Shown one piece after another: positions 6,708 through 26,312 of a stretch of DNA of 33,035 bases. This DNA is from Thalassocella blandensis (lineage in GTDB: Bacteria; Pseudomonadota; Gammaproteobacteria; Pseudomonadales; Cellvibrionaceae), in the NCBI GenBank assembly GCA_902141825.1, contig CABFPG010000016.1:1-33035 (forward strand). The letters are read 5' to 3'. The notes below the pieces were generated by a model, which saw only the letters and a program-made list of their open reading frames with translations, was not told the DNA's origin and ran no database searches. The position numbers and the translations under genes were made by a program. How positions within the stretch are numbered: position 1 is the first letter of the stretch; every line of letters starts with the position of its first letter.

Positions 6708-8885
6708 TTAATTACAAGTCCCACTGGCGGACCAGGCATTACTCCAGGCCCAGCCATCACCAGGCGCATAAGGACCACCAATACTGCACCAACCCGCCAC
6801 AACACAAGTATATTTCGCACTATGGTTCTGGACCACGGCGCCTGCAGCATATGCAGCACCATCCACGTATTGTGGGATACCAGCACATGCACCGCCACTT
6901 GAACTCGAAGACGAACTACTGGAGCTGGAAGAGGAACTGCTGGAAGAACTCGAAGACGAACTCGACGAGGAGCTGCTGGAGGAACTGGACGATGAACTGC
7001 TGGAAGAGCTTGATGAGGAAGTACTGCCGCCACAGCTGCCAAGATTTTCCCACGCACCCCAATCGCCTGTTTGCGCCGGATTTTCGCCTTGTGTCCACCA
7101 ACGAGCTCGATAACGCACACCGTTATACTGCACCTCCATACTTCCGGTGTAGACCTTGCTTGCACTCCACTGTTCAAGGCCAGGACAAGTACCGCCACCA
7201 CTGGAGGAAGAGCTGCTGGAAGAACTCGAAGACGAACTGGACGAAGAACTGCTGGAGGAACTGGACGATGAACTGTTGGAGACAGGAATCAGCTCCCAGT
7301 AGGATGAAAGCTGCTTCTCATTTTCCCATTGTTCTATATTGGCTTCCGGTGACGTGGAATCTCCAGCAATACGAATACTCTTGCTGCTGTGTGTCGCAAT
7401 CAGCTGATGATACGCGCCTTCTTTCGCTGCAATAAATTTCTGGTTGCCACCGCCGACGTAATCCCACTGGTGAATATTTGCACCGTTGTTTGCGCTGACT
7501 GCATCCACATCGAGTGAACGTCCACTGTGTACTGCCAAAATGCTGTACACACCATTCCCCTGATGATTAAAAGTAAATTGCTGGTTGGTGCCGCCAGTGA
7601 AATGCCACTGCAAAATATTTGTCCCATTGCCAGTTAATGCATCATCCACATCCATGTATAAACCACTCGCGCGGTTTTTTACATAATACTTTCCTGCAAG
7701 CCCCGCATCTCCGTTTGGCAATACTCGAATTGAACTGGCCAGGTCATTAAAACCATTGTCAGCCAAACAACTGTCTTCCGCTGAAGCCTGAAATACATTC
7801 CCACTAAAATAGCCGCCGTCCCACAACTCAACTTTATATCCGGGCTTTAAGCGGAAAGACGACATCTGATTATCGACATACCCAAGGTTCCGCAAAGCAT
7901 CCACATTATGATCTCCAGCCGGAACCATCACCGACAAGCCATCCCAGGGACAATGTTCGTAAACTGTTAAAGGTCCATAAGGCCGAGGAGTGCCATTGCC
8001 ATAAATCTGTACAATCGCCGCAACATCTTTATCGGTTAAGTTATTTCGTTGTCCCAATTGATTGGAAGGCACACTCGGATCGAGTGATTCTATGGTCGGT
8101 AAACCGTTGGAAGAAAACGCGGTGTAACCATAATGCATAATGGAACGTACGTCGTAACTGCCAATCGACGCAGTAATTTCGCCATGCTTGTCAAAATTGT
8201 GCTGTTTGTCTGAAGGTATGTTAGCCCAGACAATTCGCACATAATTATCGCGATCGAAGCGGGACTGTTCATGCCAAAACCCCAACGCATGCATAAACTC
8301 ATGAGCAACGATGCCCGCGTACGCACACCCGGCGCCGATCGAGACTTCCTGACGACCGCCGTTACGACCAACATAAGACCAGCAGCCTGAACCTTTAATG
8401 ACCTCAATATAATCGGCCTGATTAGTTCTCTGTACAAATTTGACACCAGTACGACTGGAAATTAACGCCATACCAGCAAGAATTGCATTGGAATCGGCCT
8501 GTGATGCCGCAGACAACACATAGGGCACCGTACTGTTTTGCCACGTTGTATTTCCGCTCCAGGCAGCCTCAGCGACCATTTCATCGGGATCGGGCACACG
8601 ATAAACGTCCTCATATTTACGAATAGCCAGATTCTCTATCCCTTCAACGGCGACGCGGTTATGTTCTCCCACGGCGATATCACCCTCGATGACCGCTTTC
8701 CCATCCAGCGTTAAATAATCCATGCTGGTGCCATCTGGTTGATAATGAGTGGTTTGTGGAGCTTGATGTTCTAAGTAAGAGCGATTCACCTCAACTTCAT
8801 TGGTGTTCGCGGAACTGATGCCTGAAAACGCAAGAAAAGAAATAAGTGCTAAGCCTGGGCTTAGCCACTGGGGTGTAATATTCAT
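6708..8885 (-). CDS. Secreted astacin-family (M12A) zinc metalloprotease with ricin-B lectin repeats and two C-terminal chitin-binding (ChtBD3/CBM5-12-like) modules joined by poly-Ser linkers
   Basis: Signal peptide, then astacin motif HEFMHALGFWHEQSRFDRD, then a Met-turn (SIMHY). QxW repeats (QWHFTGG, QWDYVGG, IEQWEN). Two modules carry ...YRARWWTQGENP... and ...AWSNAWSASGTC. Linkers of 20 to about 55 Ser. Confidence 0.85.
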   Translation of the reverse strand: MNITPQWLSPGLALISFLAFSGISSANTNEVEVNRSYLEHQAPQTTHYQPDGTSMDYLTLDGKAVIEGDIAVGEHNRVAVEGIENLAIRKYEDVYRVPDPDEMVAEAAWSGNTTWQNSTVPYVLSAASQADSNAILAGMALISSRTGVKFVQRTNQADYIEVIKGSGCWSYVGRNGGRQEVSIGAGCAYAGIVAHEFMHALGFWHEQSRFDRDNYVRIVWANIPSDKQHNFDKHGEITASIGSYDVRSIMHYGYTAFSSNGLPTIESLDPSVPSNQLGQRNNLTDKDVAAIVQIYGNGTPRPYGPLTVYEHCPWDGLSVMVPAGDHNVDALRNLGYVDNQMSSFRLKPGYKVELWDGGYFSGNVFQASAEDSCLADNGFNDLASSIRVLPNGDAGLAGKYYVKNRASGLYMDVDDALTGNGTNILQWHFTGGTNQQFTFNHQGNGVYSILAVHSGRSLDVDAVSANNGANIHQWDYVGGGNQKFIAAKEGAYHQLIATHSSKSIRIAGDSTSPEANIEQWENEKQLSSYWELIPVSNSSSSSSSSSSSSSSSSSSSSSSSSSGGGTCPGLEQWSASKVYTGSMEVQYNGVRYRARWWTQGENPAQTGDWGAWENLGSCGGSTSSSSSSSSSSSSSSSSSSSSSSSSSSSSSSSSSSSSSSSSSGGACAGIPQYVDGAAYAAGAVVQNHSAKYTCVVAGWCSIGGPYAPGDGWAWSNAWSASGTCN

Positions 8886-10856: not shown

Positions 10857-11816
10857 GTGAAAATTACCGGTAACTCAGCACAGCAAACTCAGACCACTCG
10901 TAGTTCGAGCAAAAATCTCGATCTCAAACGAAGTTCCACCAAAAAGTCCAAAGCTGCCGATCAAACCGGAACGCGGTCTGTCAAAGTAAACAAACAGCCA
11001 AAATTCAAGTTGAACCCAAACTTCAACCTGACCACCAGCGCGAACAACAACATCACCTACAAAAACGCCAAAAATTATCCAACCGGGGCAAAAGACTGGA
11101 GTACCCAGGACACCAAGATCTGTAGCCAGTTGGCAGACTTTGTCTACAACCCAAAAAATGAAAACATGATACTGGAAGGCAAAAGCCTGACGCCTTTAAG
11201 CAGCCAGATTACCCACCATGGTCTGCATCAACAAAACGGATTGTTTACCGATAAGAAGACTGATGGACAGGCCATGGCCTGGGAATCCAATGACAAAGTT
11301 TTTGTGGCATTCAGGGGAACAGAATCTTTGCAGGATGCAAAGCAGGACTTACTCATTGGACTGACTGACAAGCCCAACGACGTTTTTGATAATTTCATGT
11401 TAAGCACAGCAAAGTACGCCAAGAAAAGTGGCAAGCAGCTAGTGATCACAGGGCATAGTTTAGGCGGGTATCATGTCAACAGTTTTGCCAGTAAAGCGGC
11501 TAAGAGTGAACAGTTCGCGAATTTAAAAGACGCGTCTTTTATCGGTTTTGCCTCCCCACAATTTGCCAAAAAAGCCAATGTACTCAATATCGGTATGAAA
11601 AACGATCCTGTCTTCGGCGTACTTGCGACCGCCACTCATGGGTATATGCCGTCTAATTCAAAAAGTGGCCCACAGTTTGTTGAAGGAATGCAATACACCG
11701 CCAACCACACACCAGGGAAGTCGGTCTCTGCACACCTTATGGCGAATATTCAAGAGGCGGTTAATGGCATTACCAGCCAGACGGGTAAGGGTAGCGCAAG
11801 CGCAGCCACAGCTTAA
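10857..11816 (+). CDS. Class 3 (fungal-type) lipase / phospholipase A1-like with long polar N-terminal extension
   Basis: Lipase_3 signatures VAFRGTESLQDAKQDL and the nucleophile elbow ITGHSLGG. GTG start with AAGAGA upstream. The first 70 aa are S/T/K/N-rich with no signal peptide. Confidence 0.75.
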   Translation: MKITGNSAQQTQTTRSSSKNLDLKRSSTKKSKAADQTGTRSVKVNKQPKFKLNPNFNLTTSANNNITYKNAKNYPTGAKDWSTQDTKICSQLADFVYNPKNENMILEGKSLTPLSSQITHHGLHQQNGLFTDKKTDGQAMAWESNDKVFVAFRGTESLQDAKQDLLIGLTDKPNDVFDNFMLSTAKYAKKSGKQLVITGHSLGGYHVNSFASKAAKSEQFANLKDASFIGFASPQFAKKANVLNIGMKNDPVFGVLATATHGYMPSNSKSGPQFVEGMQYTANHTPGKSVSAHLMANIQEAVNGITSQTGKGSASAATA

Positions 11817-11934: not shown

Positions 11935-11973
11935 CTGAAAAATATTTCCGACGCCCAAAGAACAGGCGTCGGT
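11935..11973 (-). terminator. Candidate terminator closing the minus-strand operon
   Basis: 8-bp stem CCGACGCC/GGCGTCGG with a 10-nt loop. On the minus strand it is followed by AAATATTTTT. Lies 60 bp past the last gene of the cluster. Confidence 0.4.
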
Positions 11974-12275: not shown

Positions 12276-12821
12276 TTATACGTCAAAGTTAGTGGTTAAA
12301 TAGTGTTTTATCTCTGAAGACTTTGGGTGTTGATCAAGCCACTGCTTAAAGGCGTCTACCTTGGCAAAGGCGTCTTCTCCTAATAATTCGGTATAATGTT
12401 TTTGCCAGTGCGCATGCTGGCGTTCAGCGCGAATTTTCTTCTGCCAGGCATCCGTAAATAATTCTGGAAGATGGTCCTGCATATCCAGTTGTTTTAGCAA
12501 TTGCCACTCACCACCGTCCAGCCAGGCTTCGTCACAATGTCCGCACAGTTCTATTCGGTTTTCGGAAGAAGCATCTATCTTAAACTTTGTCATGAGCTTA
12601 CTGCATTTTGGACACAGCTTCGCTCCTTTGCTGTCAATCGCGAGGTTATTGCCTTGTTCGGTAATGATCTGGTCGTCGCTTGGTTGAAAATGATCGAGCC
12701 AGTAACGATATTGAATGAGGGAAATAAGAACCCCATGGCAATTCTGACAGCCCGCTCCTATCAGCCCTTTCTCAATCTCGGCAGGTTGAAGATCTTCTTT
12801 ACTACACGTGGGACATTTCAT
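12276..12821 (-). CDS. Tandem zinc-ribbon protein (zf-TFIIB / PF13453-like x2)
   Basis: Two copies of CPxC...17-22 aa...C(x)xC followed by WLD.GE(L/W): CPTCSK...CQNCHG and CPKCSK...CGHCDEAWLDGGEW. Confidence 0.6.
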   Translation of the reverse strand: MKCPTCSKEDLQPAEIEKGLIGAGCQNCHGVLISLIQYRYWLDHFQPSDDQIITEQGNNLAIDSKGAKLCPKCSKLMTKFKIDASSENRIELCGHCDEAWLDGGEWQLLKQLDMQDHLPELFTDAWQKKIRAERQHAHWQKHYTELLGEDAFAKVDAFKQWLDQHPKSSEIKHYLTTNFDV

Positions 12822-12860: not shown

Positions 12861-13430
12861 CTAGGTTTTCCGCCCGCGTTTACGTGTCATGATATAAGCT
12901 GCAGCAATACCCGACAGCACGCCAAAAAAATGTGACTCAAACGAGACGCGTGGATCACCGGGTAATACACCATAAATCATTCCACCATAAAATACCGCCA
13001 CAAATATGGCAATCACGATATTCACAAAATTCTTTTGGAACCAGGCAATGGCGATGGATAAACTCCACAAACCAAAAATCCATCCACTCGCGCCGATATG
13101 CCCTGACGGCCTGGCAAACAACCAGACGAGAAGTCCAGTCAACACAATAATAATGAAGCTGGATTTAACATAAAAGGGCACCCCACGAATTAAAATCAGT
13201 GCGCTGAAAATGACAAAACCCAACAGGTTATTAATTAAATGACGCCAATCCCCATGCAACCAGGGTGAAGTCAATATATAGGGTAAAGTGTGGGGGTCAC
13301 GCGGCACCAAAGCAAACTGATTCAAGCTGCCTTCGAGCAATAAATTAAGTACATGCACACCTAACAAAATACAACATAAAGTAAACAGCAACTTGATCGG
13401 CTGCCTTTTGAAGGAGGACGAACCAGACAT
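12861..13430 (-). CDS. Rhomboid-family intramembrane serine protease
   Basis: 189 aa, 6 TM. Shows WLHGDWRHLINNLLGF (TM2 HxxxN motif), the catalytic GASG (HIGASGWIFG) and the TM6 His (SHFFGVLSGIAAA). The ATG abuts the stop of the giant gene. Confidence 0.8.
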   Translation of the reverse strand: MSGSSSFKRQPIKLLFTLCCILLGVHVLNLLLEGSLNQFALVPRDPHTLPYILTSPWLHGDWRHLINNLLGFVIFSALILIRGVPFYVKSSFIIIVLTGLLVWLFARPSGHIGASGWIFGLWSLSIAIAWFQKNFVNIVIAIFVAVFYGGMIYGVLPGDPRVSFESHFFGVLSGIAAAYIMTRKRGRKT

Positions 13431-16400
13431 CTACACCCCACCGCCGTTTGTATTGGGTTCCTGTTTCCGCTTCACTGACTGCCCCTTAGTACTTTTTTGC
13501 AAAACACCGTCTTTTAGCTGCTTTTCCAGCTCACGTAGTTGTTGCGATACATCGCTCATTCGTTCATGCGTTCGCAAATCTATTTCCAGCTTTTTATCCA
13601 TACTCCGCACCAGCGGGTAAATACTGCTTTCGATAGTAGAAGCCAATACCTGTAACAATTTATCAATACCGGGCACTGGTTGATTGATCACTTCTATTTT
13701 TTGTTGGCTCGCGTGAATAGAGTCGTGTATTTTATTCAGCGTTTGCGAAACAAATTCTTGAGGATCGAACTGTGCGGGCACCAGCTCCTGCTTGTCAGAG
13801 TCCAGTCGCTTAATCTGTAATTTAGTCAGCGCGTTAGCTTCTCGACTCATCCTAGATAGAGATTGGCCCTGCTTGGACATTTCTGCAGTTGCCTGTGCAA
13901 TGGTATCCACCGTTTTCACCAGATCTACCAACTGACCAATAACTTTCATGCCAGTATCGGCTTCATCGCCTCCCATGGCTTTGTTGCGCAGAAAATCGGC
14001 TTTAATTTCACTCCATCGCGCCGCCTGCTTATCTGTCATATTCCCGCGTAACTCAGCCAGCTTTAGCAGGTTTTCTTCTGCACCAGCAGTCAGCAATTGC
14101 GCCTCTCCCAGATAGTGATCTGCAATAACCTGCATTAACTCGGCATCGTTCATCACTGAGCTGACCTTTTCCGCCATCTTATTCATATTACGGTAACTGC
14201 CCTGGAGCTTGAATGACGGTTCTGTACGGTATTTATCGGCTTGAGCTGCAGAGGCAATATATTGTTGATTAATCTTCAAGATCACATCACGAATGACAAA
14301 AAGTTTTTTCAATACATCAACAATTTCGTTTATTTCAGCACCACTGTACTGGTAATTGAAATCTGTCGTGGCGACATCTTTTCCCTGAGCCAACGCTACA
14401 AATAAATATACATCTTTAATATCCCGCGTTGCCAACGGTGCCAATACAGCATTGGACGTTAAACTATTCTCGATATAACTCAAGGCGAACTGCTCATCCA
14501 TACCACCGAGAATATCACCAAGATTATATATATCCGCTCGGTTTGCCAGCATATCTGGAATTTTAAACACCTCACCGGATTCGGTGTAAGGGTTACCAGC
14601 CATTACCACGCAAAACTTTTTACCGCGCATATCATAGGTTTTTGTATCTCCTTTCCACACACCTTCTATACGACGCGTACCATCACACAAAGAAATAAAT
14701 TTTTGCAAGAACTCTGGATGCGTGTGCTGTATATCATCGAGATACAACATGACATTATTTCCCATCTCCAACGCCAGGTTCAGTTTATTCAGCTCCTGAC
14801 GCGCGGTTGCATTCGGTGCTTGCTGCGGATCAAGCGAATGCACATCGTGTCCCAGTGATGGACAGTTTATTTTCATGAAGATAAGGCCTAAGCGACTGGC
14901 GACATATTCCATCAAAGTGGTTTTACCATAACCTGGAGGCGAAATCATCATCAGCAACCCCATAAGGTCTGTCCGCTTGCTATCGCCAACGGTACCCATT
15001 TGCTTTGCAAGATTGTCTCCGATAATAGGCAGGTAGGCTTCGTTGATTAAACGATTTCGCACAAACGAGCTTAAGGGGCGGGGTTTAAATTCGTGCAAGC
15101 GCAAGGATTTTCTTTCGCGTGCAATCACATCCTGCCGAATTTGCAAATAACGCTGGAAGTTTTGTAAGTGAACTTCGGCATGCTCATCCAGCTGCAAAAG
15201 AAACTCATCAACCGCAAAATGCAAACAACGCTTGTCGAGTTTAGGGTGTTCTCCCATCAAGCCTTCGACGGTTATTTCCAAATCCACTTCTGTGCTGCGC
15301 CGATCGATACGTTCATCAGCATTAATTAATCCTGCTGCTTCCGGGATATAACGACGCAGTGCATCCAGCTGTTTATTGTTGACCAATGCACTGAGCCAGG
15401 CACAGGATAAATTCCACCGCTCTGCCGGCCATCCGATCATTTTTTCCAATGCCATCTGGAAACGTCGCCACGATTCATTATTCAACGATCGCCGCAGCTC
15501 TTCAACGAGTCTACGTGCATATTTGCTGCTGACAAACTCGGCTCGCTCGCGCCCAAGCTCACACACCAGGTAATCTGCTGCACGACTGATGTCGAGCGCA
15601 CTGACATCCATCGGGTGCAATCGTATAAACTCCATCATGGCGTGACGAATTTCACTTGCTAATAATGCATGTGCTTCGAAACTTGAAAAGTCATCCTTCA
15701 TTTGCTCGGCAGCTTGTGCCCGCTCGATCCAGGTCTCGTATGTTAGACGCTTATTTTGCAACTGTTCAGAAATACGCTGAATATTAGCCCAGAACACTTG
15801 TGCAAAGCCGCGGCATTTAGGGTCAAAGCGAAGTAACTCGGCGCTGTTTAGAGCGGGCAGCAAATCCATTAAAATAAGCGCAGCATCATAGTCATGAATG
15901 CCTTTCTCATACCCTTCTTTGTACCTGGGTGCGGCGTAATCTCGCACCAGCTTTTGCATAAGCTCTCGATCCAGAAGTGCCTGATTCAACTTGTCCTGAC
16001 TCAATTCATTCTCATGTTTTTCAGCGCTTTTGAGAATACTATATGCAAGAAATTCCGCGCGATACACAGAGTCACTTTCAGACGCCAGACTCACATTCCA
16101 GTAAGGTTTTAGCTGGATCAAATCGTCATCGTCAATCGACTCGAAAAAATCAGTTCCACTAAGATGAATATTCAGCGCGTCATCACGCGGGATTATGGTG
16201 AGATCCAAATCCTGAGTATTCACGCTAAACTTATGTCGCGGGCCGAGTTTGATAACATTGCCGTTGTCTTCATAGATATCCGTTTTATCGCGCAAAACAC
16301 GAACGGCTTGCTCCTTTGCCGCTTTGAAACGCGCTTCAACATCGTCAGCTTTAACTTGTGCATCGAGTTTTCTTAAAGCTTCTACAAATTCACGCACTTT

Positions 16401-18833
16401 CAGTACCAAAGGATCTGAAGCGAAGTACGTATTTAAAGGGTCTATTTCGGTAAACTTTGTGGAGCGACGCTCTATACTGACCAGCACCCGACTGGCCGCA
16501 TCTGCAATCGACTGGGCTTTTCGCTGACGGGTATCCAGCAGTTGCTGCTTATGTGATTCAAAGGTTTCATAAATTTCTTCGCGTTTGGTCATGATATCCG
16601 CGAGAAATTGATCATAATCTGAAAACTGGCTCTCAAGCTCTTCCAATTGCACCAGCAAGCGAGACATTTGCTCGTCGCAACTTTGCGGGTCGTCCGCCAT
16701 TCCCAAAGCATTAGTTATACTTTGTGAAAACAATTTAAATTGTGCAGAAAATTGTGCGACCGCCTCTTCTGACCCCAGATTTTTCTGCTTGTGGGTCGCG
16801 TTCGCTTTGCTTTGGTTTAATTTGCTATATACCGCGGAAATAGCATCCACAATATTGGTACGTAATGTTGTATCGTCAATTTTCAAAGAGGTGAGCAACT
16901 CAGATAGCAGATCCAGTCCAGCCGCAATGCTTTCTATCTGCTCAATCAGGGGTTTCAGCCGGGCATTGGTATCAGCCTCCGCGACTTCATGATTGAGTGT
17001 TTCTATACTGTCTAAATAGGGAGTGAGCGCATTTTCATCCGCGAGAAATTCTACAGTTTTTTCACTCAACTCCTGTTGAACTGTTATCAGTTCATCGTCC
17101 ATCACCGCGATTTTTTCTACGTCGATGTAACGATAGTCTTTTATCGTCGTTAAGTGTCCACGTTGATGACGAATTTCATCCAGTGCGGCAACATAATCTT
17201 CTACCGTACTCCAGGACGAGGTGCGAATTCGCGAAATAATCGCGCTCTGCTGTTCAGAGGCTTTTGCCAGTGCTTCAACAGATTGCTGACGAATGTCCTG
17301 CACTTTGGCAAATTCATCTATCGCCAGCTCTGCAGTCTGTGAAATTTCCTGCAGGATAGCGGGAATTTCTCCTACGGCTTTTTCAGACAACCAGTAATGA
17401 TCGTCAAAAGCTCTGCGTGAATCCTTACTCAACTCTTCGTAAAGACGTGAAGAAACACTTTGGTTTTCTATAACACGGCTGATACTGTATAAATCCGAAA
17501 TACCACGCACCAGAGCTGCATTACCAATGCGTCCAAAAAAGGACTGGCTCTCGGGTTGCTTACTGGCAAACTCGTCACTAAAAAAGGGGGTAACCCAGAT
17601 CTGCATTGGATGCACTCGGGTAGCATCTTTTTCCGCGGAAAAAATCACAAGCGTCCCGTCTTCAGCCAGTGCATACCCATGGCCGAGGATTGGATTCTGC
17701 AGGGTTTTACTTATCATGTTGTATGCAAGTAATGCCACTACACCATCTTCAGGTTCATAGAAAACAAATAAGACGTCTTCACCGTTGGGAGAGCGAATCA
17801 TCCGCTTGTATTTCAGTCCTGCAATTGCATCATCATAACTTTTGTGCTCGCCCGACTGAAGGTAATATCCACCAGGAAATACGATGCCATGATCTTCTGG
17901 CAGTTGTACACAGGATGCGCCGATGGCATCTATACGCGTGACTTTTTGTGTCAATGTATTAAATACCAGATATCGCCACAGCGTTTCCTGATAGGGCAGC
18001 ACTTTCAGTAAAATGAGATCGCCAAGCCTGGCGAAATGGAATTCGGCATCATCAATCGACTGGGTTTTATTCTCCACAGGTTCACTGTATATACCACGCC
18101 CTTCCTGAGTGTTGTTCTCCACTTTTACCGTGAGATCGCCGCCGTGTGTTTCCACAAAGATCGTGTCCAGAATATTAATATGTGGAAACTTTCCGTGAAT
18201 AACATCATCCCGGCCACAGGCAGTCCATTCAAAATCATAAGCGGGTGGCAATTGAATATCACGCTCACCGCGATTATCAATATACTTATCAACGGCGCCC
18301 TCTGGGGTTAAGGAAAATCGGAAAACCCGAATATCCTCTATTCGCTCACCTATTTGAAAGCCCAGCAACAACTTGCCATCTTTGATGGTGACTTCCTGAA
18401 TTTTGGTATGTTTGTAGTAGCGATAAAGTTCTTGAAAATCTTTATTAAAGTTTTTATCAGATAGAAACGTATCGGCTATATCCTGTTGTTGTACGGTGTA
18501 CTCATCGCCCTGCTTTACAAGTTTAAACAGCGAAAATACGTCTTCTATTTTGGTTTCTTTCTTCAGACCGATGAAGACGTTGTAGGCAAACAACAAATAG
18601 TTTCCGACCTGTACGATATCCCGGGCCACGCAATTGTTTTCCGTGCGCACACGAACTCGTGCAGCAACAGTGAGTTCCGACCCACCAAACTCTGCCAGAC
18701 GAGCCTCATTTAAAACTTTTATTTCAGCTGCAAGCGCATTTCCCTGGTCCGTTAATCGCTTTTTAATAACCTCATAAGCGCCTCCTTCAGCAACGGCCTT
18801 ATCGACTGTATTTTCTTTTACGGCTTCAGACAT
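13431..18833 (-). CDS. Giant (1800 aa) coiled-coil protein with an embedded MoxR/AAA_5-like P-loop ATPase domain; function unknown
   Basis: A single uninterrupted ORF. The ATPase core lies at residues about 1290-1430. It contains Walker A (SPPGYGKTT), Walker B (VMLYLDDIQH) and sensor-1 (VVMAGNPYTES), with arrangement and spacing like MoxR/dynein-type AAA_5. Long heptad-like E/K/Q/L-rich segments lie at about 560-900 and 1500-1800. The N-terminal 550 aa appear beta-rich and globular. Confidence 0.8.
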   Translation of the reverse strand: MSEAVKENTVDKAVAEGGAYEVIKKRLTDQGNALAAEIKVLNEARLAEFGGSELTVAARVRVRTENNCVARDIVQVGNYLLFAYNVFIGLKKETKIEDVFSLFKLVKQGDEYTVQQQDIADTFLSDKNFNKDFQELYRYYKHTKIQEVTIKDGKLLLGFQIGERIEDIRVFRFSLTPEGAVDKYIDNRGERDIQLPPAYDFEWTACGRDDVIHGKFPHINILDTIFVETHGGDLTVKVENNTQEGRGIYSEPVENKTQSIDDAEFHFARLGDLILLKVLPYQETLWRYLVFNTLTQKVTRIDAIGASCVQLPEDHGIVFPGGYYLQSGEHKSYDDAIAGLKYKRMIRSPNGEDVLFVFYEPEDGVVALLAYNMISKTLQNPILGHGYALAEDGTLVIFSAEKDATRVHPMQIWVTPFFSDEFASKQPESQSFFGRIGNAALVRGISDLYSISRVIENQSVSSRLYEELSKDSRRAFDDHYWLSEKAVGEIPAILQEISQTAELAIDEFAKVQDIRQQSVEALAKASEQQSAIISRIRTSSWSTVEDYVAALDEIRHQRGHLTTIKDYRYIDVEKIAVMDDELITVQQELSEKTVEFLADENALTPYLDSIETLNHEVAEADTNARLKPLIEQIESIAAGLDLLSELLTSLKIDDTTLRTNIVDAISAVYSKLNQSKANATHKQKNLGSEEAVAQFSAQFKLFSQSITNALGMADDPQSCDEQMSRLLVQLEELESQFSDYDQFLADIMTKREEIYETFESHKQQLLDTRQRKAQSIADAASRVLVSIERRSTKFTEIDPLNTYFASDPLVLKVREFVEALRKLDAQVKADDVEARFKAAKEQAVRVLRDKTDIYEDNGNVIKLGPRHKFSVNTQDLDLTIIPRDDALNIHLSGTDFFESIDDDDLIQLKPYWNVSLASESDSVYRAEFLAYSILKSAEKHENELSQDKLNQALLDRELMQKLVRDYAAPRYKEGYEKGIHDYDAALILMDLLPALNSAELLRFDPKCRGFAQVFWANIQRISEQLQNKRLTYETWIERAQAAEQMKDDFSSFEAHALLASEIRHAMMEFIRLHPMDVSALDISRAADYLVCELGRERAEFVSSKYARRLVEELRRSLNNESWRRFQMALEKMIGWPAERWNLSCAWLSALVNNKQLDALRRYIPEAAGLINADERIDRRSTEVDLEITVEGLMGEHPKLDKRCLHFAVDEFLLQLDEHAEVHLQNFQRYLQIRQDVIARERKSLRLHEFKPRPLSSFVRNRLINEAYLPIIGDNLAKQMGTVGDSKRTDLMGLLMMISPPGYGKTTLMEYVASRLGLIFMKINCPSLGHDVHSLDPQQAPNATARQELNKLNLALEMGNNVMLYLDDIQHTHPEFLQKFISLCDGTRRIEGVWKGDTKTYDMRGKKFCVVMAGNPYTESGEVFKIPDMLANRADIYNLGDILGGMDEQFALSYIENSLTSNAVLAPLATRDIKDVYLFVALAQGKDVATTDFNYQYSGAEINEIVDVLKKLFVIRDVILKINQQYIASAAQADKYRTEPSFKLQGSYRNMNKMAEKVSSVMNDAELMQVIADHYLGEAQLLTAGAEENLLKLAELRGNMTDKQAARWSEIKADFLRNKAMGGDEADTGMKVIGQLVDLVKTVDTIAQATAEMSKQGQSLSRMSREANALTKLQIKRLDSDKQELVPAQFDPQEFVSQTLNKIHDSIHASQQKIEVINQPVPGIDKLLQVLASTIESSIYPLVRSMDKKLEIDLRTHERMSDVSQQLRELEKQLKDGVLQKSTKGQSVKRKQEPNTNGGGV

Positions 18834-18896: not shown

Positions 18897-19322
18897 TTAC
18901 TTATTTGCTGTGGAGGTTTGATCGGAGCTTTCGGACGATTTCTCGTCAGACGCTCGTAACTTTCGCGCGGCTTTTTCGCTGCATGACGAGGATTGATGCG
19001 AATTTACCAACCAATTCATTGTTACACCCAAAGCCGCTCCGATTCCCGCCCCCAGAAGAGCGTTTTGCAACGAGTTTTCGTTCTGCCCTGCTTTGCTGAT
19101 GCCAACACCAATACCTGCACCAATGCCCGCACCTATCCCAGCGGCAACTCCCGTTCTGGTACCCGTATTGGTCTTGACCTGCTCCCGCACGCTACCCAAT
19201 TTGCTGATTAATACATTTCTCAGTTCGGATGAGGTAACCAACTCCGTCAACCCCTGATTGTGCAATTCTTTTTGCAGCTGCTGAATTAAACTCGACAGCG
19301 GTACTTCACTTTGTTGTTTCAT
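18897..19322 (-). CDS. Glycine-zipper (GxxxG-repeat) small membrane protein
   Basis: 141 aa. GVAAGIGAGIGAGIGVGI ... LLGAGIGAALG, a classic glycine-zipper (YMGG-like) pattern. Confidence 0.6.
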   Translation of the reverse strand: MKQQSEVPLSSLIQQLQKELHNQGLTELVTSSELRNVLISKLGSVREQVKTNTGTRTGVAAGIGAGIGAGIGVGISKAGQNENSLQNALLGAGIGAALGVTMNWLVNSHQSSSCSEKAARKLRASDEKSSESSDQTSTANK

Positions 19323-19396: not shown

Positions 19397-21307
19397 TTAC
19401 TGCAACTCTTGCGAGTTTTGCGGTGCTCCAGCCATCACTTTGGCAAGAATGGCCTGAATAGTGCCGCTCTTTTCTGCCAGACCATCGACAGCCTTGCCGA
19501 TCGATAGCGACTTGGCAAAGTTATCAAAGAAGTGCTCTTCCCCACCGACAATATCGATTTTCGCTTTTTCCAGAGCCGTTGCCAGTACTTCGGCATTCTC
19601 TTTTGCAATATCTTTCCCAGCGTCAATCGAAGCCAGTGCTTCCTGCAGTGCAGTTTCCAGACTCATACGGAACTCTTCATGAGCTCTGGCCGCATCACTC
19701 ATACTGTTCATCGCACTGAACTTGTCCACCAGACCATCTGCTTCTGCTTTGAATTTCTCACGAATAACTTCAGCATCAGCCAATCCGGTTTCGCGTTTGG
19801 CTTTCGCCTCAGACTCACCTTTGAGCGCAACCACTTTCGCTTCTGATTCACCCTGTGCTGCCGTAATATGGGCTTTTGCCAAACCTTCTTTTTCCATGGC
19901 GTCGGCCATAGCTTCCTGCACTTTCGCTTCGGCTAGACCACTCGCGGCCTCTTCTGCCTGAATGCCTTCGGCGAGTTTCTTCTTCGCATCGGCTTCTTTC
20001 GCTGCCGCTTCCAGGTTCGCCTGGGCCATGGTTGTAATTTCCATCGCTCGGTGTTTGGCCGCCAGCTCTTCTGCTTCTGCACGCTTCACTTCTTTCACTT
20101 TTTCTTCTTCGGCCAACGCTTCCGCATCCAATACTTGCGTTTGCTTACGACGATCCGCTTCGGAAACCTCACGCACTTCTTTAATTTTCTCTTCTTCTAT
20201 CGCAACTGTCTTATCCACAGACACGCGCTCACGAATGACATTGGCAATTTCCTTTTTCTGTACCTCTACAGCTTTTTCAGCATCGATTCGCTGCAATTCC
20301 ACTTCTCTCTCGCGCGAGACAATTTCAAGATCTTTTGCTCGGGTGACCTTCTCAATTTCAATCACTACTGCACGCTGACGGTTTTGCTCCGCCACTTCGA
20401 TCTCACGTTGTTGATTCTCCTTCTGAACCGCCAGCTCCTGATCCGCCGCAATAGTGGCCGCTTCAGATTTCAAGCGCTCCTCTTCCTGCACTTTGACTGT
20501 TTCCGCCTCTTCGCGCGCACGAATGGTGGCGATTTCACGTTGTTGGCGAGCTTCAGCATCAGCTTGTTGTCGCTCGAGTTCAAGCATAGCCTCAACGGTT
20601 TCTACATTCTTTTTCTTGATAGCAAGCTCTTCATCGCGCTCAAAAATATTTGTTTGAACATTTTGAGCAGCCGTGAGTTCAGTGATTTTACGAATACCTT
20701 CAGCATCAAGAATATTGCTGGGGTCCAGAGAGGACTTCGGCGTTTGCTCCAGATAATCGATCGCAACATCTTCCAGCACATACCCATTTAAATCATTACC
20801 GATTACCTGAATGATTTTGTCACGAAACTGTTGTCTATCTTCAAACAGATTGACGAAATCAATTTGTTTACCGACAGTTTTCAGTGCTTCAGAAAATTTT
20901 GCATTAAATAATTCGTTGACAGCATCTTTATCCGATGCACGATTTGCACCCAGGGACTTTGCCACTTTTAAGACGTCTTCGGGGGTTTCGTTCACTCTCA
21001 AATAAAATGCAACGGTAATATCCGCCCGCATATTGTCACGGCAGATCAACCCATCTTTAGCTCGCCTATCCACTTCCATAGTGATCAATGAAATCCTCAT
21101 CAACTCTTTTTTATGGATGATTGGCAGTATCCAGGCGCCGGTGAAAAATACTTTTGGCTTTGGAGTCGTGTCGTTTTTAATCAGCGCCACACCTTGCTCT
21201 ACTTTCACATAGAAAGCTTTGTATAGTGCAGCGACAACCATTAAGAATAGAAATAACAGACCGATGGTGATTATCACCATAACAACATCTGGTGCAAACT
21301 CTGACAT
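19397..21307 (-). CDS. yqiK: Flotillin / SPFH (band-7) family protein, YqiK-like, with extended coiled-coil C-terminus
   Basis: 636 aa. N-terminal TM helix, then an SPFH domain (...ISLITMEVD...ITVAFYLRV...), then 350 aa of an E/A/K/R-rich coiled coil. AAGGAG RBS. Confidence 0.85.
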   Translation of the reverse strand: MSEFAPDVVMVIITIGLLFLFLMVVAALYKAFYVKVEQGVALIKNDTTPKPKVFFTGAWILPIIHKKELMRISLITMEVDRRAKDGLICRDNMRADITVAFYLRVNETPEDVLKVAKSLGANRASDKDAVNELFNAKFSEALKTVGKQIDFVNLFEDRQQFRDKIIQVIGNDLNGYVLEDVAIDYLEQTPKSSLDPSNILDAEGIRKITELTAAQNVQTNIFERDEELAIKKKNVETVEAMLELERQQADAEARQQREIATIRAREEAETVKVQEEERLKSEAATIAADQELAVQKENQQREIEVAEQNRQRAVVIEIEKVTRAKDLEIVSREREVELQRIDAEKAVEVQKKEIANVIRERVSVDKTVAIEEEKIKEVREVSEADRRKQTQVLDAEALAEEEKVKEVKRAEAEELAAKHRAMEITTMAQANLEAAAKEADAKKKLAEGIQAEEAASGLAEAKVQEAMADAMEKEGLAKAHITAAQGESEAKVVALKGESEAKAKRETGLADAEVIREKFKAEADGLVDKFSAMNSMSDAARAHEEFRMSLETALQEALASIDAGKDIAKENAEVLATALEKAKIDIVGGEEHFFDNFAKSLSIGKAVDGLAEKSGTIQAILAKVMAGAPQNSQELQ

Positions 21308-21332: not shown

Positions 21333-22019
21333 TTAGATTTTAAATTCTTGCTCAGAAATAACTTTATAAATATTTTCTTCCGCTACGTACTCCAGCAGCA
21401 CTATTTTATCTCCCCGTTTAAACTCCTCTTCACTTTTATATGATCTCACCTTCACAATCAGTCCTGCGCCTCCATCGTTCACTGTGGCTTCGCCAAATTC
21501 AGTATTTACAATAGAAGTTCTTACTAGCGCCGATTGACCGACTATCACTTTCTGCACTTCCTGATGCGCAGTTTTGAAAAAATCACGAAAAGGATTGAGC
21601 AATTTCCCTGTAATCATGGCAGCAGCATACAGGACGCCAACCAACACCGCTAAAGCGACAATAAATTGCACAATTCCATCAGGTATAAAATGGAAAGTAT
21701 ATTCTACGATGAGAAAACTTAGAATCCAGCCGATTAAACTTACCAGAAAAAATACAAGCGGCATGGGAATACCAACCAAGCCCAGACGCATCATAATCCC
21801 GGCTAAAACATGGCTGCTGGTCAAGCCTTCAGAGCCATCTAACCCGCCGTCAATATCAGGACCATCAAAGTTCAAAAAATCCAAATCAATCAGACCTAGA
21901 ACTGCAATCAAGCCAAAGAACGTAAATAAGATTAGTAGACAAGTAAAAACAATGACAGGAAATGTCAAAATAATATTATAGAAAGGGTCCATTGCTTCAG
22001 TGAAAAAAATTGCAAACAT
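21333..22019 (-). CDS. yqiJ: NfeD/YqiJ-like inner-membrane protein with C-terminal OB-fold
   Basis: 228 aa. Four to five TM helices, then a soluble C-terminal beta domain (GQSALVRTSIVNTEFGEATV...GDKIVLLEY). This is the canonical flotillin partner and sits 25 bp upstream of it. GGAGG RBS. Confidence 0.7.
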   Translation of the reverse strand: MFAIFFTEAMDPFYNIILTFPVIVFTCLLILFTFFGLIAVLGLIDLDFLNFDGPDIDGGLDGSEGLTSSHVLAGIMMRLGLVGIPMPLVFFLVSLIGWILSFLIVEYTFHFIPDGIVQFIVALAVLVGVLYAAAMITGKLLNPFRDFFKTAHQEVQKVIVGQSALVRTSIVNTEFGEATVNDGGAGLIVKVRSYKSEEEFKRGDKIVLLEYVAEENIYKVISEQEFKI

Positions 22020-22517
22020 TTACGTCCTCCGTATGCACACCATTGCTATATCAGCAATATTTTTTGTTGTTATTATCAGGTTTAAATTCCATAACAAACA
22101 ACCTAGTCCAGCAGGAATGGCAGGTTATTCGCAGGAATGTTAATTTAAACACTCCACTCGATACCACCTCTCTTTTGATTCTCTCAAATATATCCTCCAG
22201 AGAAAATCATCCATTTAAGCTTCCTGGACCGCCTGTTACAACCTGAAAAATTGATTCGTCCGTGAATCCTGACATCCCTTTTCCTCCTTTCCTTACGACA
22301 ACTCTCCCACTATATCTGAAAGGGTCTTTGCCTGGATATGCGTTTTTAGAACCACCGTAAATGCCAGACAAACTCCTACAACTCCTGTAACCTTGCTGCA
22401 GCAACATTTCCATAATATCGCTACATGAAACAGTTCCGTCCTGTAAACCGTTTTTCCTCCGTGATCCTCTTGCGTCCAATCCCATTCAGATTTTGTTACA
22501 TTCGAATACGCCTGGCG

Positions 22518-23217: not shown

Positions 23218-23889
23218 TCACGCCTCTACAGGCTGCTTTAAAAAATTGCTATAAGCTTCGGTTGCCTGAATTACGTTTGATGCCAACACTTCAATCTCAA
23301 AAACAATATTGGGCAAGACCGAAGATGCACTTAACGCACCAAACATCTGATAATAATCCTTTCCGTTAGTCAGCGTATCCAGACTAATAGTTGAAAGAGG
23401 AAAGTATTTATGAGTCCGCAACACAGCCTCATTAAATGCACTAACATCTTTCACCTCGTCCACCGACCACAAAACAGCCTCTACGATAATCTGATCACCC
23501 GACACGGTGAGAAACAAAGGCAAATCACCCACTTCATGCATTATCAGATGTATGGCCGGCTCGATACCGTCAATCAACTCTATGCTCGCTAACTCACCAT
23601 TAAACAGCGGCTCTGAACAAAGCGCTTCGTATAACCCTGAGGTGGTCCAACGTTTAATTTCTGCCATCATCCAATCTCCTTTTTGTATTGATCGTGTGGA
23701 TATTGCGCTCTCGTGCACGCTTCCAGTCAACGCCAGATCATCCGCCACTTTTGCACGCAATTGCTTCTCGTATTTCGCCAGATACTCAGCATTTTCGGGC
23801 AAGATCCAAACTTCCTTCTTCACCAGGCCCAATTCGCGTAACCGGCGGCGATATTCTCTCTGGTAATGTGCTGATGATTTTGGCTTCAT
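23218..23889 (-). CDS. yjfI: DUF2170 (YjfI-like) protein with 90-aa basic N-terminal extension
   Basis: The C-terminal 130 aa resemble E. coli YjfI, the partner of yjfJ/pspA-like genes. The N-terminal extension is Arg/Lys-rich (QREYRRRLRELGLVKK...). The 16-bp gap to pspA supports co-transcription. Confidence 0.55.
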   Translation of the reverse strand: MKPKSSAHYQREYRRRLRELGLVKKEVWILPENAEYLAKYEKQLRAKVADDLALTGSVHESAISTRSIQKGDWMMAEIKRWTTSGLYEALCSEPLFNGELASIELIDGIEPAIHLIMHEVGDLPLFLTVSGDQIIVEAVLWSVDEVKDVSAFNEAVLRTHKYFPLSTISLDTLTNGKDYYQMFGALSASSVLPNIVFEIEVLASNVIQATEAYSNFLKQPVEA

Positions 23890-23907
23890 GTGAGTAACTC
23901 TACCCTG

Positions 23908-23964
23908 TTACATGTAATAGGTCAATAAAATTACATGTAAACATGTATAAAACATTACATGTAA
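23908..23964. promoter_or_regulatory. Operator-like array: three perfect 10-bp palindromes TTACATGTAA (plus one degenerate copy) at 23-24 bp phasing
   Basis: Read directly at 23908-23917, 23931-23940 and 23955-23964; degenerate AACATGTATA at 23940-23949. Sits in the 92-bp gap immediately upstream of the yjfI-like start. Confidence 0.55.
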
Positions 23965-23981
23965 GAAAATAAATTAAATAA

Positions 23982-26168
23982 TTATATATATTTCAATAAC
24001 TTAAACTTAAATGCCCTGGCAAGCAGGAGGTCAGGAAACACTTTGCACCGACTGTTATATTCTTCCACTGCATCGTTATAACCTTGCCGCAGCACAGCAA
24101 TTTCATTTTCCAGATGTGTAAGCTGCTGAATCAATTTCGCAGTAAGGCTGTGGGCCTTGAGTTGCGGATATGCTTCCACCACCGCCGTCGCCTGATGCAC
24201 CAGATGCTCTAGATCTCCCTGTGCCGCGCTATCGACACTAATCGCTGACCACTGCCGACGCATATCCGCCACAGTTCGCAATAGTGCCTCTTCATGCTGC
24301 ATGAACTTATGGGCAATTTTATTAAGGGCAGGCACTAGATTCTTCCGTTTCCGTAACGCAACCTCAATGTTAGCCCGGTTCCGCATCGCTCTTTTTCGCA
24401 GAAATACGAGATCGTTGTAATGCAGGATTATCATCAGATTCAGGAGAAACACCGGCGACAGCATGGCGGCAAACAAAAAATCCGTGGTTGCAAAGCGACC
24501 ATTTAAGCCGAGCCAGGCCAGCACAAAGTAAAGGCCCGCACTATACGCAAGAGTCAACAATGCCAGCCCTGCGCGCGCCTTACGCAAAAGAAGTGCCCGC
24601 TCTGTTAAGTTCGACAGCAGGTACAAAGATTTTTTACCCGCCTCTCTCATACACAATCTATCATCCTGCTTCATATCAATCGCCACAGGACCAAGCGCAT
24701 ATAAGGAATCCTGTGACGCCAGCCATTCAACAAAGTAGTGGCGGCTACCGCGATATTGGCTTTCGCTGTGTTTTGAAATTACTTCTGCCTTCGCGGGATA
24801 AATCTTCAGCGAGCCACTCTCATCCACACACAAAAATGGAACGGCCTCTTTCCTATCCTCAATGGTCACCCAACGGGTTTTCCCACCACTACTTCGCTTC
24901 TCTTTGACCCGGTAGCGGTACCACATACATGGCACGCCGGCCAAAGGCGCTTCCAGAGTCCTGGAATTTATAGCCTCGACACGCCCCAACACCTCATTCA
25001 ACCCACAACTCACACCGACTACTTTACTGGTCCGAATATTTTCGATGGCCCGCTTAACAAATATAAGCTTCACTCCAAAAAACACTGCGAGTACAGCCAC
25101 CAACGCCGATATCCCCATAATCCATATCCCGGAAACAGACGACAAAGCGACATCATCAAGCCCCCGTTTTCGCTCCTGCAACAACTCAAGCTCCTGAGGC
25201 GAGATAACCACCTCTAATGCGGGTAATGAGATTTGCCACAGCGGCGCCAACCATCGCTCGGGTATTCGCTGAAACTGTTGATGCAATTGGGTGTGTGACA
25301 TTGCCAATGCCAAACGCATTTCACGAGATTGCAAGGCATCAATCGCATTTTGCCTCAGCGCCACCTCTACCGCCGCCTGCTGTTTGTCATACCGCTCGAC
25401 GGCGTTGTGCAAATCAGCCTTCATCATTAACAGCGACAACTGCACTAGAACCAAGGCTACCGTAACCGCAATAATGCTGATAAACACCAGCACACGATGA
25501 ATACCGAACATGCAAACCAACGCATAGATAGCCACACAGCTCAGCGTCAACCCAAGCCATAAACGAAATAATACTGATGCACCTATTTTCCCCAGCACCG
25601 ATGCCGAAGAATTCGTGGTTATGACAGGATTGTATTGACCGGCCTGACGAAAGCCCAACGACATGCCATTTGAGCGGGATTCCGCAAAGCCAAAAGCCAC
25701 CAGCTGCTGACCGGGATCTATGCGATATTCGGTGTGACGGGTAGAACCGTCAGTACGTGTAAAACTGCGTGCAACCTGCCATTCAATATGTGATTGGTCA
25801 CGCTGACTCAGCAATTGAATTACCGCTGTAGAATCTCGCAGGGCTATCGTCGACGCACGACGAATATTTTCAACGGTTTTCCAGCTTGTATTACCATCAG
25901 AATCACGCTCTTCTACTTCGCGTATGTATTGAAAATATAGACAGGGGGTTTGAGTGAAATGACTTGCTATTGTCGCCCCCTCAGCAGTACCAGCCACTTT
26001 GACCTCGCCAGGTAGAACCGCAATATTGCGCGTGAGCGGAATACGCTCCATTTGTCGAAGCTGCTGTAGTGTTTCAAACCCTTGCGAAGTAAAAAAAACT
26101 GCTCCCGCGCCCCCCAACCCGGCGGACAACAGTAAAACCAACCACCACCTCAAAGACATTCGTGCCAT
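23982..26168 (-). CDS. Membrane protein: duplicated GIDE-like domains fused to a C-terminal LemA domain
   Basis: Internal duplication: TPCLYFQYIREVEERDSDGNTSWKTVE aligns with VPCMWYRYRVKEKRSSGGKTRWVTIE. Each copy is preceded by TM helices. The C-terminus matches the LemA family (...NLVPALNKIAHKFMQHEEALL...VEAYPQLKA...NEIAVLRQGYNDAVEEYN...FPDLLLARAFKFK). Start set at the Met before the signal/TM segment. Confidence 0.65.
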   Translation of the reverse strand: MARMSLRWWLVLLLSAGLGGAGAVFFTSQGFETLQQLRQMERIPLTRNIAVLPGEVKVAGTAEGATIASHFTQTPCLYFQYIREVEERDSDGNTSWKTVENIRRASTIALRDSTAVIQLLSQRDQSHIEWQVARSFTRTDGSTRHTEYRIDPGQQLVAFGFAESRSNGMSLGFRQAGQYNPVITTNSSASVLGKIGASVLFRLWLGLTLSCVAIYALVCMFGIHRVLVFISIIAVTVALVLVQLSLLMMKADLHNAVERYDKQQAAVEVALRQNAIDALQSREMRLALAMSHTQLHQQFQRIPERWLAPLWQISLPALEVVISPQELELLQERKRGLDDVALSSVSGIWIMGISALVAVLAVFFGVKLIFVKRAIENIRTSKVVGVSCGLNEVLGRVEAINSRTLEAPLAGVPCMWYRYRVKEKRSSGGKTRWVTIEDRKEAVPFLCVDESGSLKIYPAKAEVISKHSESQYRGSRHYFVEWLASQDSLYALGPVAIDMKQDDRLCMREAGKKSLYLLSNLTERALLLRKARAGLALLTLAYSAGLYFVLAWLGLNGRFATTDFLFAAMLSPVFLLNLMIILHYNDLVFLRKRAMRNRANIEVALRKRKNLVPALNKIAHKFMQHEEALLRTVADMRRQWSAISVDSAAQGDLEHLVHQATAVVEAYPQLKAHSLTAKLIQQLTHLENEIAVLRQGYNDAVEEYNSRCKVFPDLLLARAFKFKLLKYI

Positions 26169-26312
26169 AATGCTTCCTTCTCCACTCTGCTTTTGCATGC
26201 GCCGCGCAATAAATCTAACCTGTGCATTCGGACGTATACCCTTGCACCTGACTTTATGCACTCACACATTTACAATGTAAACACACTATAAGCAGCGAGA
26301 GTAAGTATTCGC

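Follow-up and report, generated by a model that had tools for sequence, protein, structure and literature searches.

Why is a giant soluble ATPase, whose relatives are named in databases as DNA repair enzymes, encoded among genes for membrane proteins? The question is raised by a 33,035-nucleotide stretch of the Thalassocella blandensis genome (contig CABFPG010000016.1, positions 1 to 33,035; hereafter the window), where one open reading frame (ORF) of the minus strand encodes an 1800-residue protein with a single AAA+ module. The answer that I favour on balance is that this protein is probably an AAA+ remodeller or switch acting on flotillin assemblies, and on PspA assemblies where PspA is present, at the inner membrane.

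Gene order around the ATPase gene

The ATPase gene lies in an operon that resembles bacABCDEF (PA3732-PA3727), the "biofilm-associated cluster" of Pseudomonas aeruginosa. The genes of the Thalassocella operon, in the order of transcription, are as follows (aa, amino acids).

23218..23889, minus strand: DUF2170/YjfI/BacA CesT-like chaperone-regulator that begins the operon, 223 aa
22518..23201, minus strand: PspA/IM30 protein of the YjfJ type, 227 aa, BacB counterpart (Pfam PF04012, E 2e-46)
21333..22019, minus strand: YqiJ/short-NfeD-like protein, 228 aa, three transmembrane segments, BacC counterpart
19397..21307, minus strand: YqiK-like flotillin/SPFH protein, 636 aa, one N-terminal transmembrane segment, BacD/PaFlo3 counterpart
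18897..19322, minus strand: glycine-zipper protein, 141 aa, between the flotillin and ATPase genes (weak YiaD glycine-zipper match)
13431..18833, minus strand: giant ATPase gene, BacE/PA3728 counterpart (ORF list, translation and identical database protein)
12861..13430, minus strand: rhomboid-family intramembrane protease, 189 aa (Pfam Rhomboid, E 7e-18)
12276..12821, minus strand: zinc-ribbon protein, 181 aa, last gene before a terminator-like hairpin (Pfam Zn_ribbon_TFIIB)

The identity of the flotillin is based on published annotation and on hhalign, in which a 14-sequence profile of the 636-aa protein matched Escherichia coli YqiK with a probability of 99.9 (E 1.9e-33). The three-segment membrane protein matched E. 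coli YqiJ with a probability of 82 (E 1e-5). The BacA-like protein was called by NCBIfam NF050185 (302 bits, cut-off 300) and by Pfam DUF2170.

Is this gene order common? A scan of a genome collection gave at least 581 species with a relative of the ATPase, and 80 loci were kept for a synteny analysis by tblastn. It was found that a flotillin gene lies directly upstream of the ATPase gene in 76 of the 80 loci, and the remaining four loci end at a contig edge. A YqiJ-like gene is present in 71 loci, a PspA gene in 53 and a BacA gene in 52. Streptomyces also has the flotillin-ATPase pair, as do one metagenome contig of high GC (guanine plus cytosine) content and several of low GC content. The annotation of Hymenobacter (Bacteroidota) gives, in this order, Tir chaperone, PspA/IM30, DUF1449, a hypothetical protein of 722 aa and "DNA repair ATPase". 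A link of the ATPase to flotillin had been proposed in an earlier sequence-only reading of the window, and the YqiK-like gene upstream in loci of distant phyla makes this its best-supported part.

The genes downstream of the ATPase are less regular. A rhomboid gene follows in 31-33 of the 80 loci and a zinc-ribbon gene in 17, and clustering of the flanking ORFs revealed a PLD-like gene in 29 loci. The slot is filled by the rhomboid and zinc-ribbon genes in Thalassocella, by a gene for the PLD-like BacF in Pseudomonas (L032:15213-15920) and by both rhomboid and PLD genes in some loci. The rhomboid, zinc-ribbon and PLD-like products are candidates for acting on membranes or lipids. None of the neighbour genes scanned gave a VWA match, in agreement with the sequence-only reading, which had seen no vWA/MIDAS partner for the ATPase.

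An operon class of this kind has been described computationally by Ravi et al. 2024 (PMC11237479). The class is built on a CesT/Tir-PspA dyad and includes a "novel AAA+ ATPase with coiled-coil and beta-propeller", in an operon with band-7/flotillin, YqiJ and PLD in some Proteobacteria, while shortened flotillin-YqiJ(-AAA+) operons are more widespread. The loci analyzed here fit these descriptions exactly, and I found no architectural difference between the giant ATPase and the published AAA+ family, whose account is computational and gives no mechanism. The text of the supplement lists no accession for the ATPase. An array of another kind was found on the Pseudomonas fluorescens SBW25 plasmid pQBR103, a 425-kb environmental megaplasmid. 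At 86434-103596 (locus L088), a yjfKLMC-like set (DUF2491, DUF350, DUF1190 and the glutathionylspermidine-synthase family) is directly followed by the genes for the SPFH protein and the ATPase. This array joins the two PspA-associated operon classes of Ravi et al. 2024.

In P. aeruginosa, the bac genes are co-transcribed as judged by reverse transcription PCR, and a sigma-54 site has been proposed for them (PMC10948618). In a bacA mutant, BacB through PA14_16200 are up 6-13 fold (PMC10948618). PA3728-PA3732 are jointly induced on phage infection (PMC12041424) and in another proteome study (PMC13637947), the flotillin PaFlo3 is paired with a short NfeD (PMC13086221), and PA3728 is listed as "ATPase" (PMC8190622). 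In the P. paraeruginosa locus L032, the fifth gene encodes a 1746-aa homologue with 56% identity over residues 7-1773, and the sixth gene is PLD-like. Because of this gene order and the "ATPase" label of PA3728, the giant ATPase is taken as the counterpart of BacE (PA3728, PA14_16190), an equation that uses the sister species P. paraeruginosa in place of the PA14 sequence. The Thalassocella ATPase is of the same length class as BacE and has the same place after bacA (DUF2170), bacB (PspA), bacC (YqiJ/short NfeD) and bacD (flotillin PaFlo3). The two operons differ elsewhere: that of P. aeruginosa ends with the PLD-like BacF and has a reported sigma-54 promoter, whereas that of Thalassocella has the rhomboid and zinc-ribbon genes, the inserted glycine-zipper gene and a sigma-70-like promoter region with three palindromes.

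The protein family

The single unbroken 5.4-kb ORF noticed in the sequence-only reading was recovered unchanged. It begins with an ATG preceded by a ribosome-binding-site-like AAGGGA, and its product is 100% identical to the T. blandensis protein TDB9533_04732 ("hypothetical protein") of NCBI. The protein has no hydrophobic or transmembrane segment and is therefore taken to be cytoplasmic.

Pfam DUF3686 (PF12458, "ATPase involved in DNA repair") covers residues 34-480 with E 6.7e-199, which is positions 2-448 of the 448 in the profile. Pfam DUF7902 (PF25472) matches residues 601-684 with E 8.1e-26 and was found in all 21 members scanned. Around residues 1292-1421 there are weak Pfam matches to AAA, AAA_5 and AAA_22, those to AAA_5 and AAA being above the cut-off. 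An NCBIfam scan of the protein gave no model, and a PDB search with the protein and with the family profile gave nothing significant, the top match being the P-loop of RuvB (E 0.16). The ATPase is a further member of a known family (DUF3686, DUF7902 and AAA) whose function is uncharacterised, and the window itself contributes Thalassocella blandensis as one more host. The sequence-only reading had implied that the architecture is unmatched; this did not hold, because the protein matches the Pfam domains, the operon class of Ravi et al. 2024 and BacE.

More than 5700 homologues were found; the word-indexed searches gave more than 5000 each, nearly all of 1600-1830 aa. An exhaustive HMMER scan with residues 1-700 gave 916 clusters at 50% identity (E <= 1e-3), with full-length members of 1590-2036 aa and identity down to 28%. 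With relatives in such numbers, the ORF and its motifs are anything but a product of chance. The hosts include Cellvibrionaceae, Pseudomonas, Xanthomonadales, Xenorhabdus, Proteus, Vibrio, Lampropedia and Zetaproteobacteria, as well as Longimicrobium, Deinococcus, Streptomyces, Nonomuraea, Myxococcota and Hymenobacter. Near-identical DNA was not found in complete E. coli genomes. Identity among the relatives drops roughly with taxonomic distance. The ATPase of Longimicrobium (Gemmatimonadota; L072, proteins P0121-P0139) is 76% identical to that of Lysobacter korlensis, which is far above what is expected between phyla and points to horizontal transfer of the operon.

Is the giant ATPase a DNA repair enzyme? 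NCBI or UniRef label the homologues as "DNA repair ATPase", and the sequence-only reading had named a match to an annotated DNA-repair ATPase with a defined function as a point that would speak against it. The name does match, but the family has no defined function, and a full-text literature search for "DUF3686" found no papers. The only point in favour of a DNA-repair enzyme is this inherited name (Pfam DUF3686, NCBI "DNA repair ATPase"). Against it, Pfam and NCBIfam show no DNA-binding or nuclease domain and no SMC_N, AAA_23 or SMC/ABC-type head, the RuvB match does not go beyond the P-loop, and the conserved neighbours are all membrane proteins. There is hardly any chance that the name describes the function. 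Since neither gene context nor detectable domains support the label, it probably misleads users of thousands of genome records.

Could the ATPase instead be an anti-phage defence sensor, induced by infection and working with PLD-like or protease effectors? The joint induction of PA3728-PA3732 by phage and the PLD-like gene downstream in 29 loci would fit this, as would a weak PADLOC match to TRIP13. This match is sub-threshold (E 0.0025, 15 bits, 49 residues around the P-loop); it was the only one, the neighbours gave none, and no PADLOC family is significant. The ATPase family was found in none of 50,697 phage records and in 13 of 72,556 plasmid records, most of these 13 being megaplasmids or chromids. 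Moreover, identity tracks taxonomy and the operon context is stable across phyla, unlike typical defence islands, and Psp-type systems respond to many envelope stresses, phage included. A role in defence is thus quite improbable.

The AAA+ module

The structure was predicted as two AlphaFold models with 61-sequence alignments, one for residues 1-880 (mean predicted local distance difference test score, pLDDT, 82) and one for residues 840-1800 (mean pLDDT 76). The features of the AAA+ module are as follows.

14514..14966, minus strand: AAA+ alpha/beta core, residues 1290-1440
14916-14942, minus strand: Walker A SPPGYGKTT, residues 1298-1306 (K1304)
14724-14747, minus strand: Walker B LYLDDIQH, residues 1363-1370 (D1366 and D1367 at 14733-14738)
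14631-14672, minus strand: pre-sensor-1 hairpin, residues 1388-1401 (AlphaFold)
14580-14609, minus strand: sensor-1 VVMAGNPYTE, residues 1409-1418 (N1414)
14538-14540, minus strand: putative arginine finger R1432
13959..14513, minus strand: helical lid, residues 1441-1625 (AlphaFold secondary structure)

The distance between Walker A and Walker B is 60 residues, within one contiguous AAA+ fold, and these two motifs and sensor-1 lie where the sequence-only reading had placed them. To which AAA+ lineage does the core belong? The AAA_5 profile, whose cut-off is 22 bits, gives 25-34 bits with the window protein and with five diverse members, and its alignment spans the whole core (profile positions 2-127 of 139). 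PF00004 gives similar scores, but its alignment is mostly confined to the N-terminal half. AAA_3, the MoxR profile, gives 12-14 bits against a cut-off of 27 (E 0.035-0.12) and is undetected in the window protein. In the AlphaFold model, helix 3 is followed by a beta-hairpin (1388-1401) and then by the strand of sensor-1. Such a pre-sensor-1 hairpin is lacking in the classical AAA clade by the established AAA+ classification. Nor was the full-length PF00004 match with a two-arginine second region of homology found, there being one arginine here. A Foldseek search with the core listed NorQ and CbbQ (MoxR type) first, then ClpA, Skd3/ClpB, ClpX, RuvB, Mdn1 and dynein, with a best E of 1.3e-3 and no classical-clade member in the top 50. 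The core is thus an AAA+ core of the pre-sensor-1-hairpin group, AAA_5-like and not assignable to MoxR proper. These results bear out the single AAA_5-like module of the sequence-only reading, which had staked its case on alignment of the P-loop region to AAA_5/MoxR profiles and had set the protein apart from MoxR and SMC.

Compared with the MoxR family (CbbQ, NorQ, RavA), the ATPase is six times larger, lacks a vWA/MIDAS partner and has Asp-Asp instead of Asp-Glu in Walker B, and the structural scores of MoxR proteins against its core are barely above those of Lon, ClpB and Vps4. Dynein and midasin resemble the ATPase in that AAA_5 is the best full-length match of the core and in that Mdn1 and dynein are among the weak structural matches. 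They consist, however, of six concatenated AAA modules and a linker, whereas each chain of the ATPase has a single module and no homologue of the linker, the stalk or the MIDAS domain. By analogy with these proteins, the sequence-only reading had suggested a force generator on the flotillin scaffold, an idea that is hypothetical.

None of the 61 aligned sequences departs from the Asp-Asp in Walker B, nor do eight distant members. Thus, the canonical catalytic glutamate is absent family-wide. The Asp-Asp holds even in members that are 28-35% identical in the N-terminal part, in which the other ATPase motifs are intact. N1414 and R1432 are invariant among the aligned members. The motifs SPPGYGKTT, [LV]DDIQH, MAGNPYT and PDMLxNR are present, invariant and common to the eight distant members. 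A conserved loop after beta-2 reads N-C/G-P-x-x-G-x-x-V-x-S-x-D-P and contains no aromatic pore-loop motif. An 18-residue conserved loop before helix 2 (1324-1341) was modelled as coil, with moderate to low pLDDT. The lid has an extra long helix (1498-1531) ahead of a EPPFKLQGSYRNM motif that is kept in distant members, and R1548 of this motif is possibly the sensor-2 residue. Conservation within the protein is highest in the AAA+ module, with at least 68% identity in all 80 loci, while the best aligned segment of the whole protein has 50-71% identity across them. The AAA motifs are retained in members with only 28-35% identity over the N-terminal 700 residues. To judge from these alignments, the ATPase module appears to be under purifying selection.

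Is the giant ATPase, then, a bacterial analogue of Vps4 that recycles PspA polymers, with flotillin as a mere membrane platform? By analogy with Vps4 and ESCRT-III, an ATPase encoded beside PspA, a protein of the ESCRT-III superfamily, may remodel a polymer, and ESCRT-like ATP-dependent remodelling has been proposed for the operon class (PMC11237479). In Hymenobacter and in 52-53 of the 80 loci, the operon starts with the genes for PspA and its CesT-like chaperone, and the position of a Vps4 seems vacant: according to a 2025 review, no Vps4-like ATPase is known for bacterial PspA and such an ATPase appears absent in bacteria (PMC7619361). However, PspA is missing in about a third of the loci, including those of Streptomyces, Xenorhabdus and Longimicrobium, while flotillin is constant, so the association with PspA is facultative. 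The core is also not that of the classical clade, to which Vps4 belongs, considering the modelled pre-sensor-1 hairpin, the one arginine in place of two and the half-length PF00004 match. Furthermore, no MIT domain is among the Pfam matches of the ATPase, and the aromatic pore loop is lacking. I consider a Vps4 analogue devoted to PspA unlikely.

Domains outside the ATPase core

The remaining parts of the protein were delimited as follows.

17394..18734, minus strand: DUF3686 domain, residues 34-480 (Pfam PF12458; AlphaFold pLDDT about 80-90)
16284..17393, minus strand: helical rod, residues 481-850, containing DUF7902 (16782-17033 of the window) (AlphaFold; Pfam PF25472)
15087..16256, minus strand: small beta unit followed by a compact all-alpha domain, residues 860-1249
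13509..13955, minus strand: C-terminal long helices (residues 1627-1775) and disordered tail (AlphaFold pLDDT 57-78)

The N-terminal part was modelled as a helix (2-49) and a beta-rich domain with strands at 55-414. Foldseek related this domain to the beta-propellers of CyRPA, WDR5, the trilobed protease, PON1 and prolyl oligopeptidase (E 1e-6 to 1e-4). Residues 55-414 thus form a predicted beta-propeller, which gives a fold to the N-terminal beta-rich region of the sequence-only reading. The following rod region (about 420-850) contains long helices, including 490-538, 655-712 and 741-791, three of them of 50-58 residues. A small beta unit with an invariant KLGPRHxFSVN motif then leads to a compact all-alpha domain with small beta elements (879-1249), mostly with pLDDT above 90. 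For residues 860-1249, neither a Pfam model nor a solved structural neighbour was found. A poorly modelled linker joins this domain to the AAA+ core. Three long helices, of lower confidence, were modelled at 1627-1775, and in many loci (e.g. L036, L037, L041 and L060) the matches end near residue 1645.

Two long coiled coils had been thought to flank the ATPase core. Long helices do exist on both sides, at about 420-850 and, with lower confidence, at 1627-1775, but the approximately 390 residues immediately on the N-terminal side of the ATPase (860-1249) were modelled as the compact all-alpha domain and not as a coiled coil. In a crude heptad scan of my own, 629-670 and 720-757 were the only segments to score above the 99th percentile of shuffled sequences.

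Does the protein act as a scaffold? It might be a nucleotide-gated scaffold or switch, in which ATP binding controls the oligomerisation of a coat-like lattice beneath the membrane at flotillin domains and hardly any mechanical work is done. An Asp-Asp Walker B is also a feature of AAA+ proteins that act as switches and hydrolyse ATP slowly, such as DnaA and DnaC. The Asp-Asp in every aligned and inspected member and the missing aromatic pore loop agree with a switch of this kind, and Foldseek listed coat-like proteins made of a propeller and helices (IFT-A, a nuclear pore complex chain and clathrin heavy chain). Their TM-scores are only 0.09-0.15, which is too weak for homology, and a common origin with coat proteins (propeller plus solenoid) was set aside. 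In addition, the invariant sensor-1 asparagine and the arginine at the finger position suggest that hydrolysis matters. I give such a lattice a low probability.

Proposed function of the giant ATPase

The probable role of the giant ATPase as a remodeller or switch on flotillin assemblies builds on the domain architecture, family membership and cross-phylum synteny observed here and, from the literature, on the co-transcription and co-regulation of the P. aeruginosa operon. I regard the operon as a conserved inner-membrane maintenance operon with the ATPase as its cytoplasmic component. How might it work? I infer ring formation, direct binding of flotillin or PspA, and a remodelling activity. 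The AAA+ modules would assemble into a ring, with K1304 in the P-loop, N1414 in sensor-1 and R1432 as the trans arginine finger; the ring is suggested by the conserved arginine at the trans-finger position. Each subunit would extend a helical rod tipped by the beta-propeller, and these arms, together with the domain at 860-1249, would dock on the cytoplasmic flotillin cage and, where present, on ESCRT-III-like PspA polymers. ATP binding and hydrolysis would then drive assembly, disassembly or rearrangement of the scaffold at a stressed membrane. Because of the invariant Asp-Asp in Walker B and the lack of a pore-loop aromatic residue, a slow switch-like or lever-type action is favoured over threading. 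In Bacillus subtilis, an SPFH protein is reported to tether PspA to the membrane (PMC8581546).

Several points weigh against this reading. Walker B lacks the canonical catalytic glutamate, so that, judged by the sequence, one cannot count on a robust ATPase activity. Model confidence is lowest in the AAA core (pLDDT 45-88, with the P-loop strand below 50). About one locus in three has neither PspA nor BacA, and thus PspA is not an obligatory substrate. A Pfam scan of the 636-aa partner finds no Band_7 domain. Deletion of paFlo3 in P. aeruginosa gives a mild biofilm phenotype, about 20% lower (PMC13086221). No paper was found on the ATPase itself in any organism.

A precedent exists in FtsH-HflK/C, in which an SPFH-family cage and a dedicated AAA+ ATPase work at the bacterial inner membrane, as known from published cryo-electron microscopy. 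FtsH, however, is a membrane-anchored AAA protease of the classical clade, whereas the giant ATPase is soluble, has neither a protease domain nor a transmembrane segment and belongs to another AAA+ lineage.

Flotillin and the PspA-type relatives of ESCRT-III form large membrane assemblies whose turnover has no known energy source. The ATPase family is strongly conserved, its pairing with flotillin extends over several phyla, and in P. aeruginosa it is regulated together with PspA. This makes it the obvious candidate, and one that can be tested in a genetically tractable pathogen through bacE/PA3728. More tentatively, and with more doubt than belief, one may picture it as the missing energy consumer of membrane-scaffold dynamics: a six-armed, propeller-tipped ring that reshapes or disassembles SPFH cages and PspA/ESCRT-III polymers. 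Such a ring would be a functional counterpart of Vps4/NSF from another AAA+ lineage, with a previously unseen helical domain at 860-1249. The points of interest concern the whole family: the invariant Asp-Asp in Walker B, the confidently modelled helical domain without a known relative, the pairing with flotillin across phyla and the unsupported "DNA repair" name.

Other features of the Thalassocella locus

Since tblastn matched the glycine-zipper gene in none of the 80 loci, its insertion appears to be specific to the lineage. The stop codon of the ATPase gene directly adjoins the start codon of the rhomboid gene (TAGATG), and a terminator scan found the strong hairpin beyond the zinc-ribbon gene at 11948-11972. 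The start of the operon is marked by the following element.

23897..23964, minus strand: probable operon promoter, sigma-70-like TTGACC-17-TAGAGT upstream of the bacA-like gene

This promoter is overlapped by a 10-bp palindrome, TTACATGTAA, that occurs there three times without a mismatch, with 23-24 bp from one copy to the next, and nowhere else in the window. The TTACATGTAA array looks like an operator array for a regulator. A search for sigma-54 -24/-12 elements upstream of the bacA-like gene found no site, and their count over the window is at chance level. An Rfam scan of the window found no RNA family.

Between the pspA-like and yqiJ-like genes there is an unusually wide gap of approximately 500 bp (22020-22517), and the only ORF inside it is unconserved. 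This ORF (22207-22485, 92 aa) was rejected as an operon gene, having a homologue in none of the 80 loci and an odd composition. Another sigma-70-like site, TTCACT-18-TATAAT (22004-21975), overlaps the start codon of the yqiJ-like gene and may serve to transcribe the flotillin-ATPase half of the operon from an internal promoter.

Directly upstream of the operon, 23982-26261 (minus strand) encodes a multi-pass membrane protein of 759 aa, which has a LemA domain at its C-terminus and matches GIDE weakly; it is not syntenic in other loci. On the other side, a class-3 lipase-like ORF lies just past the operon terminator (10857-11816, plus strand), followed at 6708-8885 (minus strand) by an ORF in which an astacin metalloprotease is combined with ricin-type lectin and CBM5/12 modules. 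Judged by synteny, the astacin and lipase-like ORFs are unrelated to the ATPase operon.

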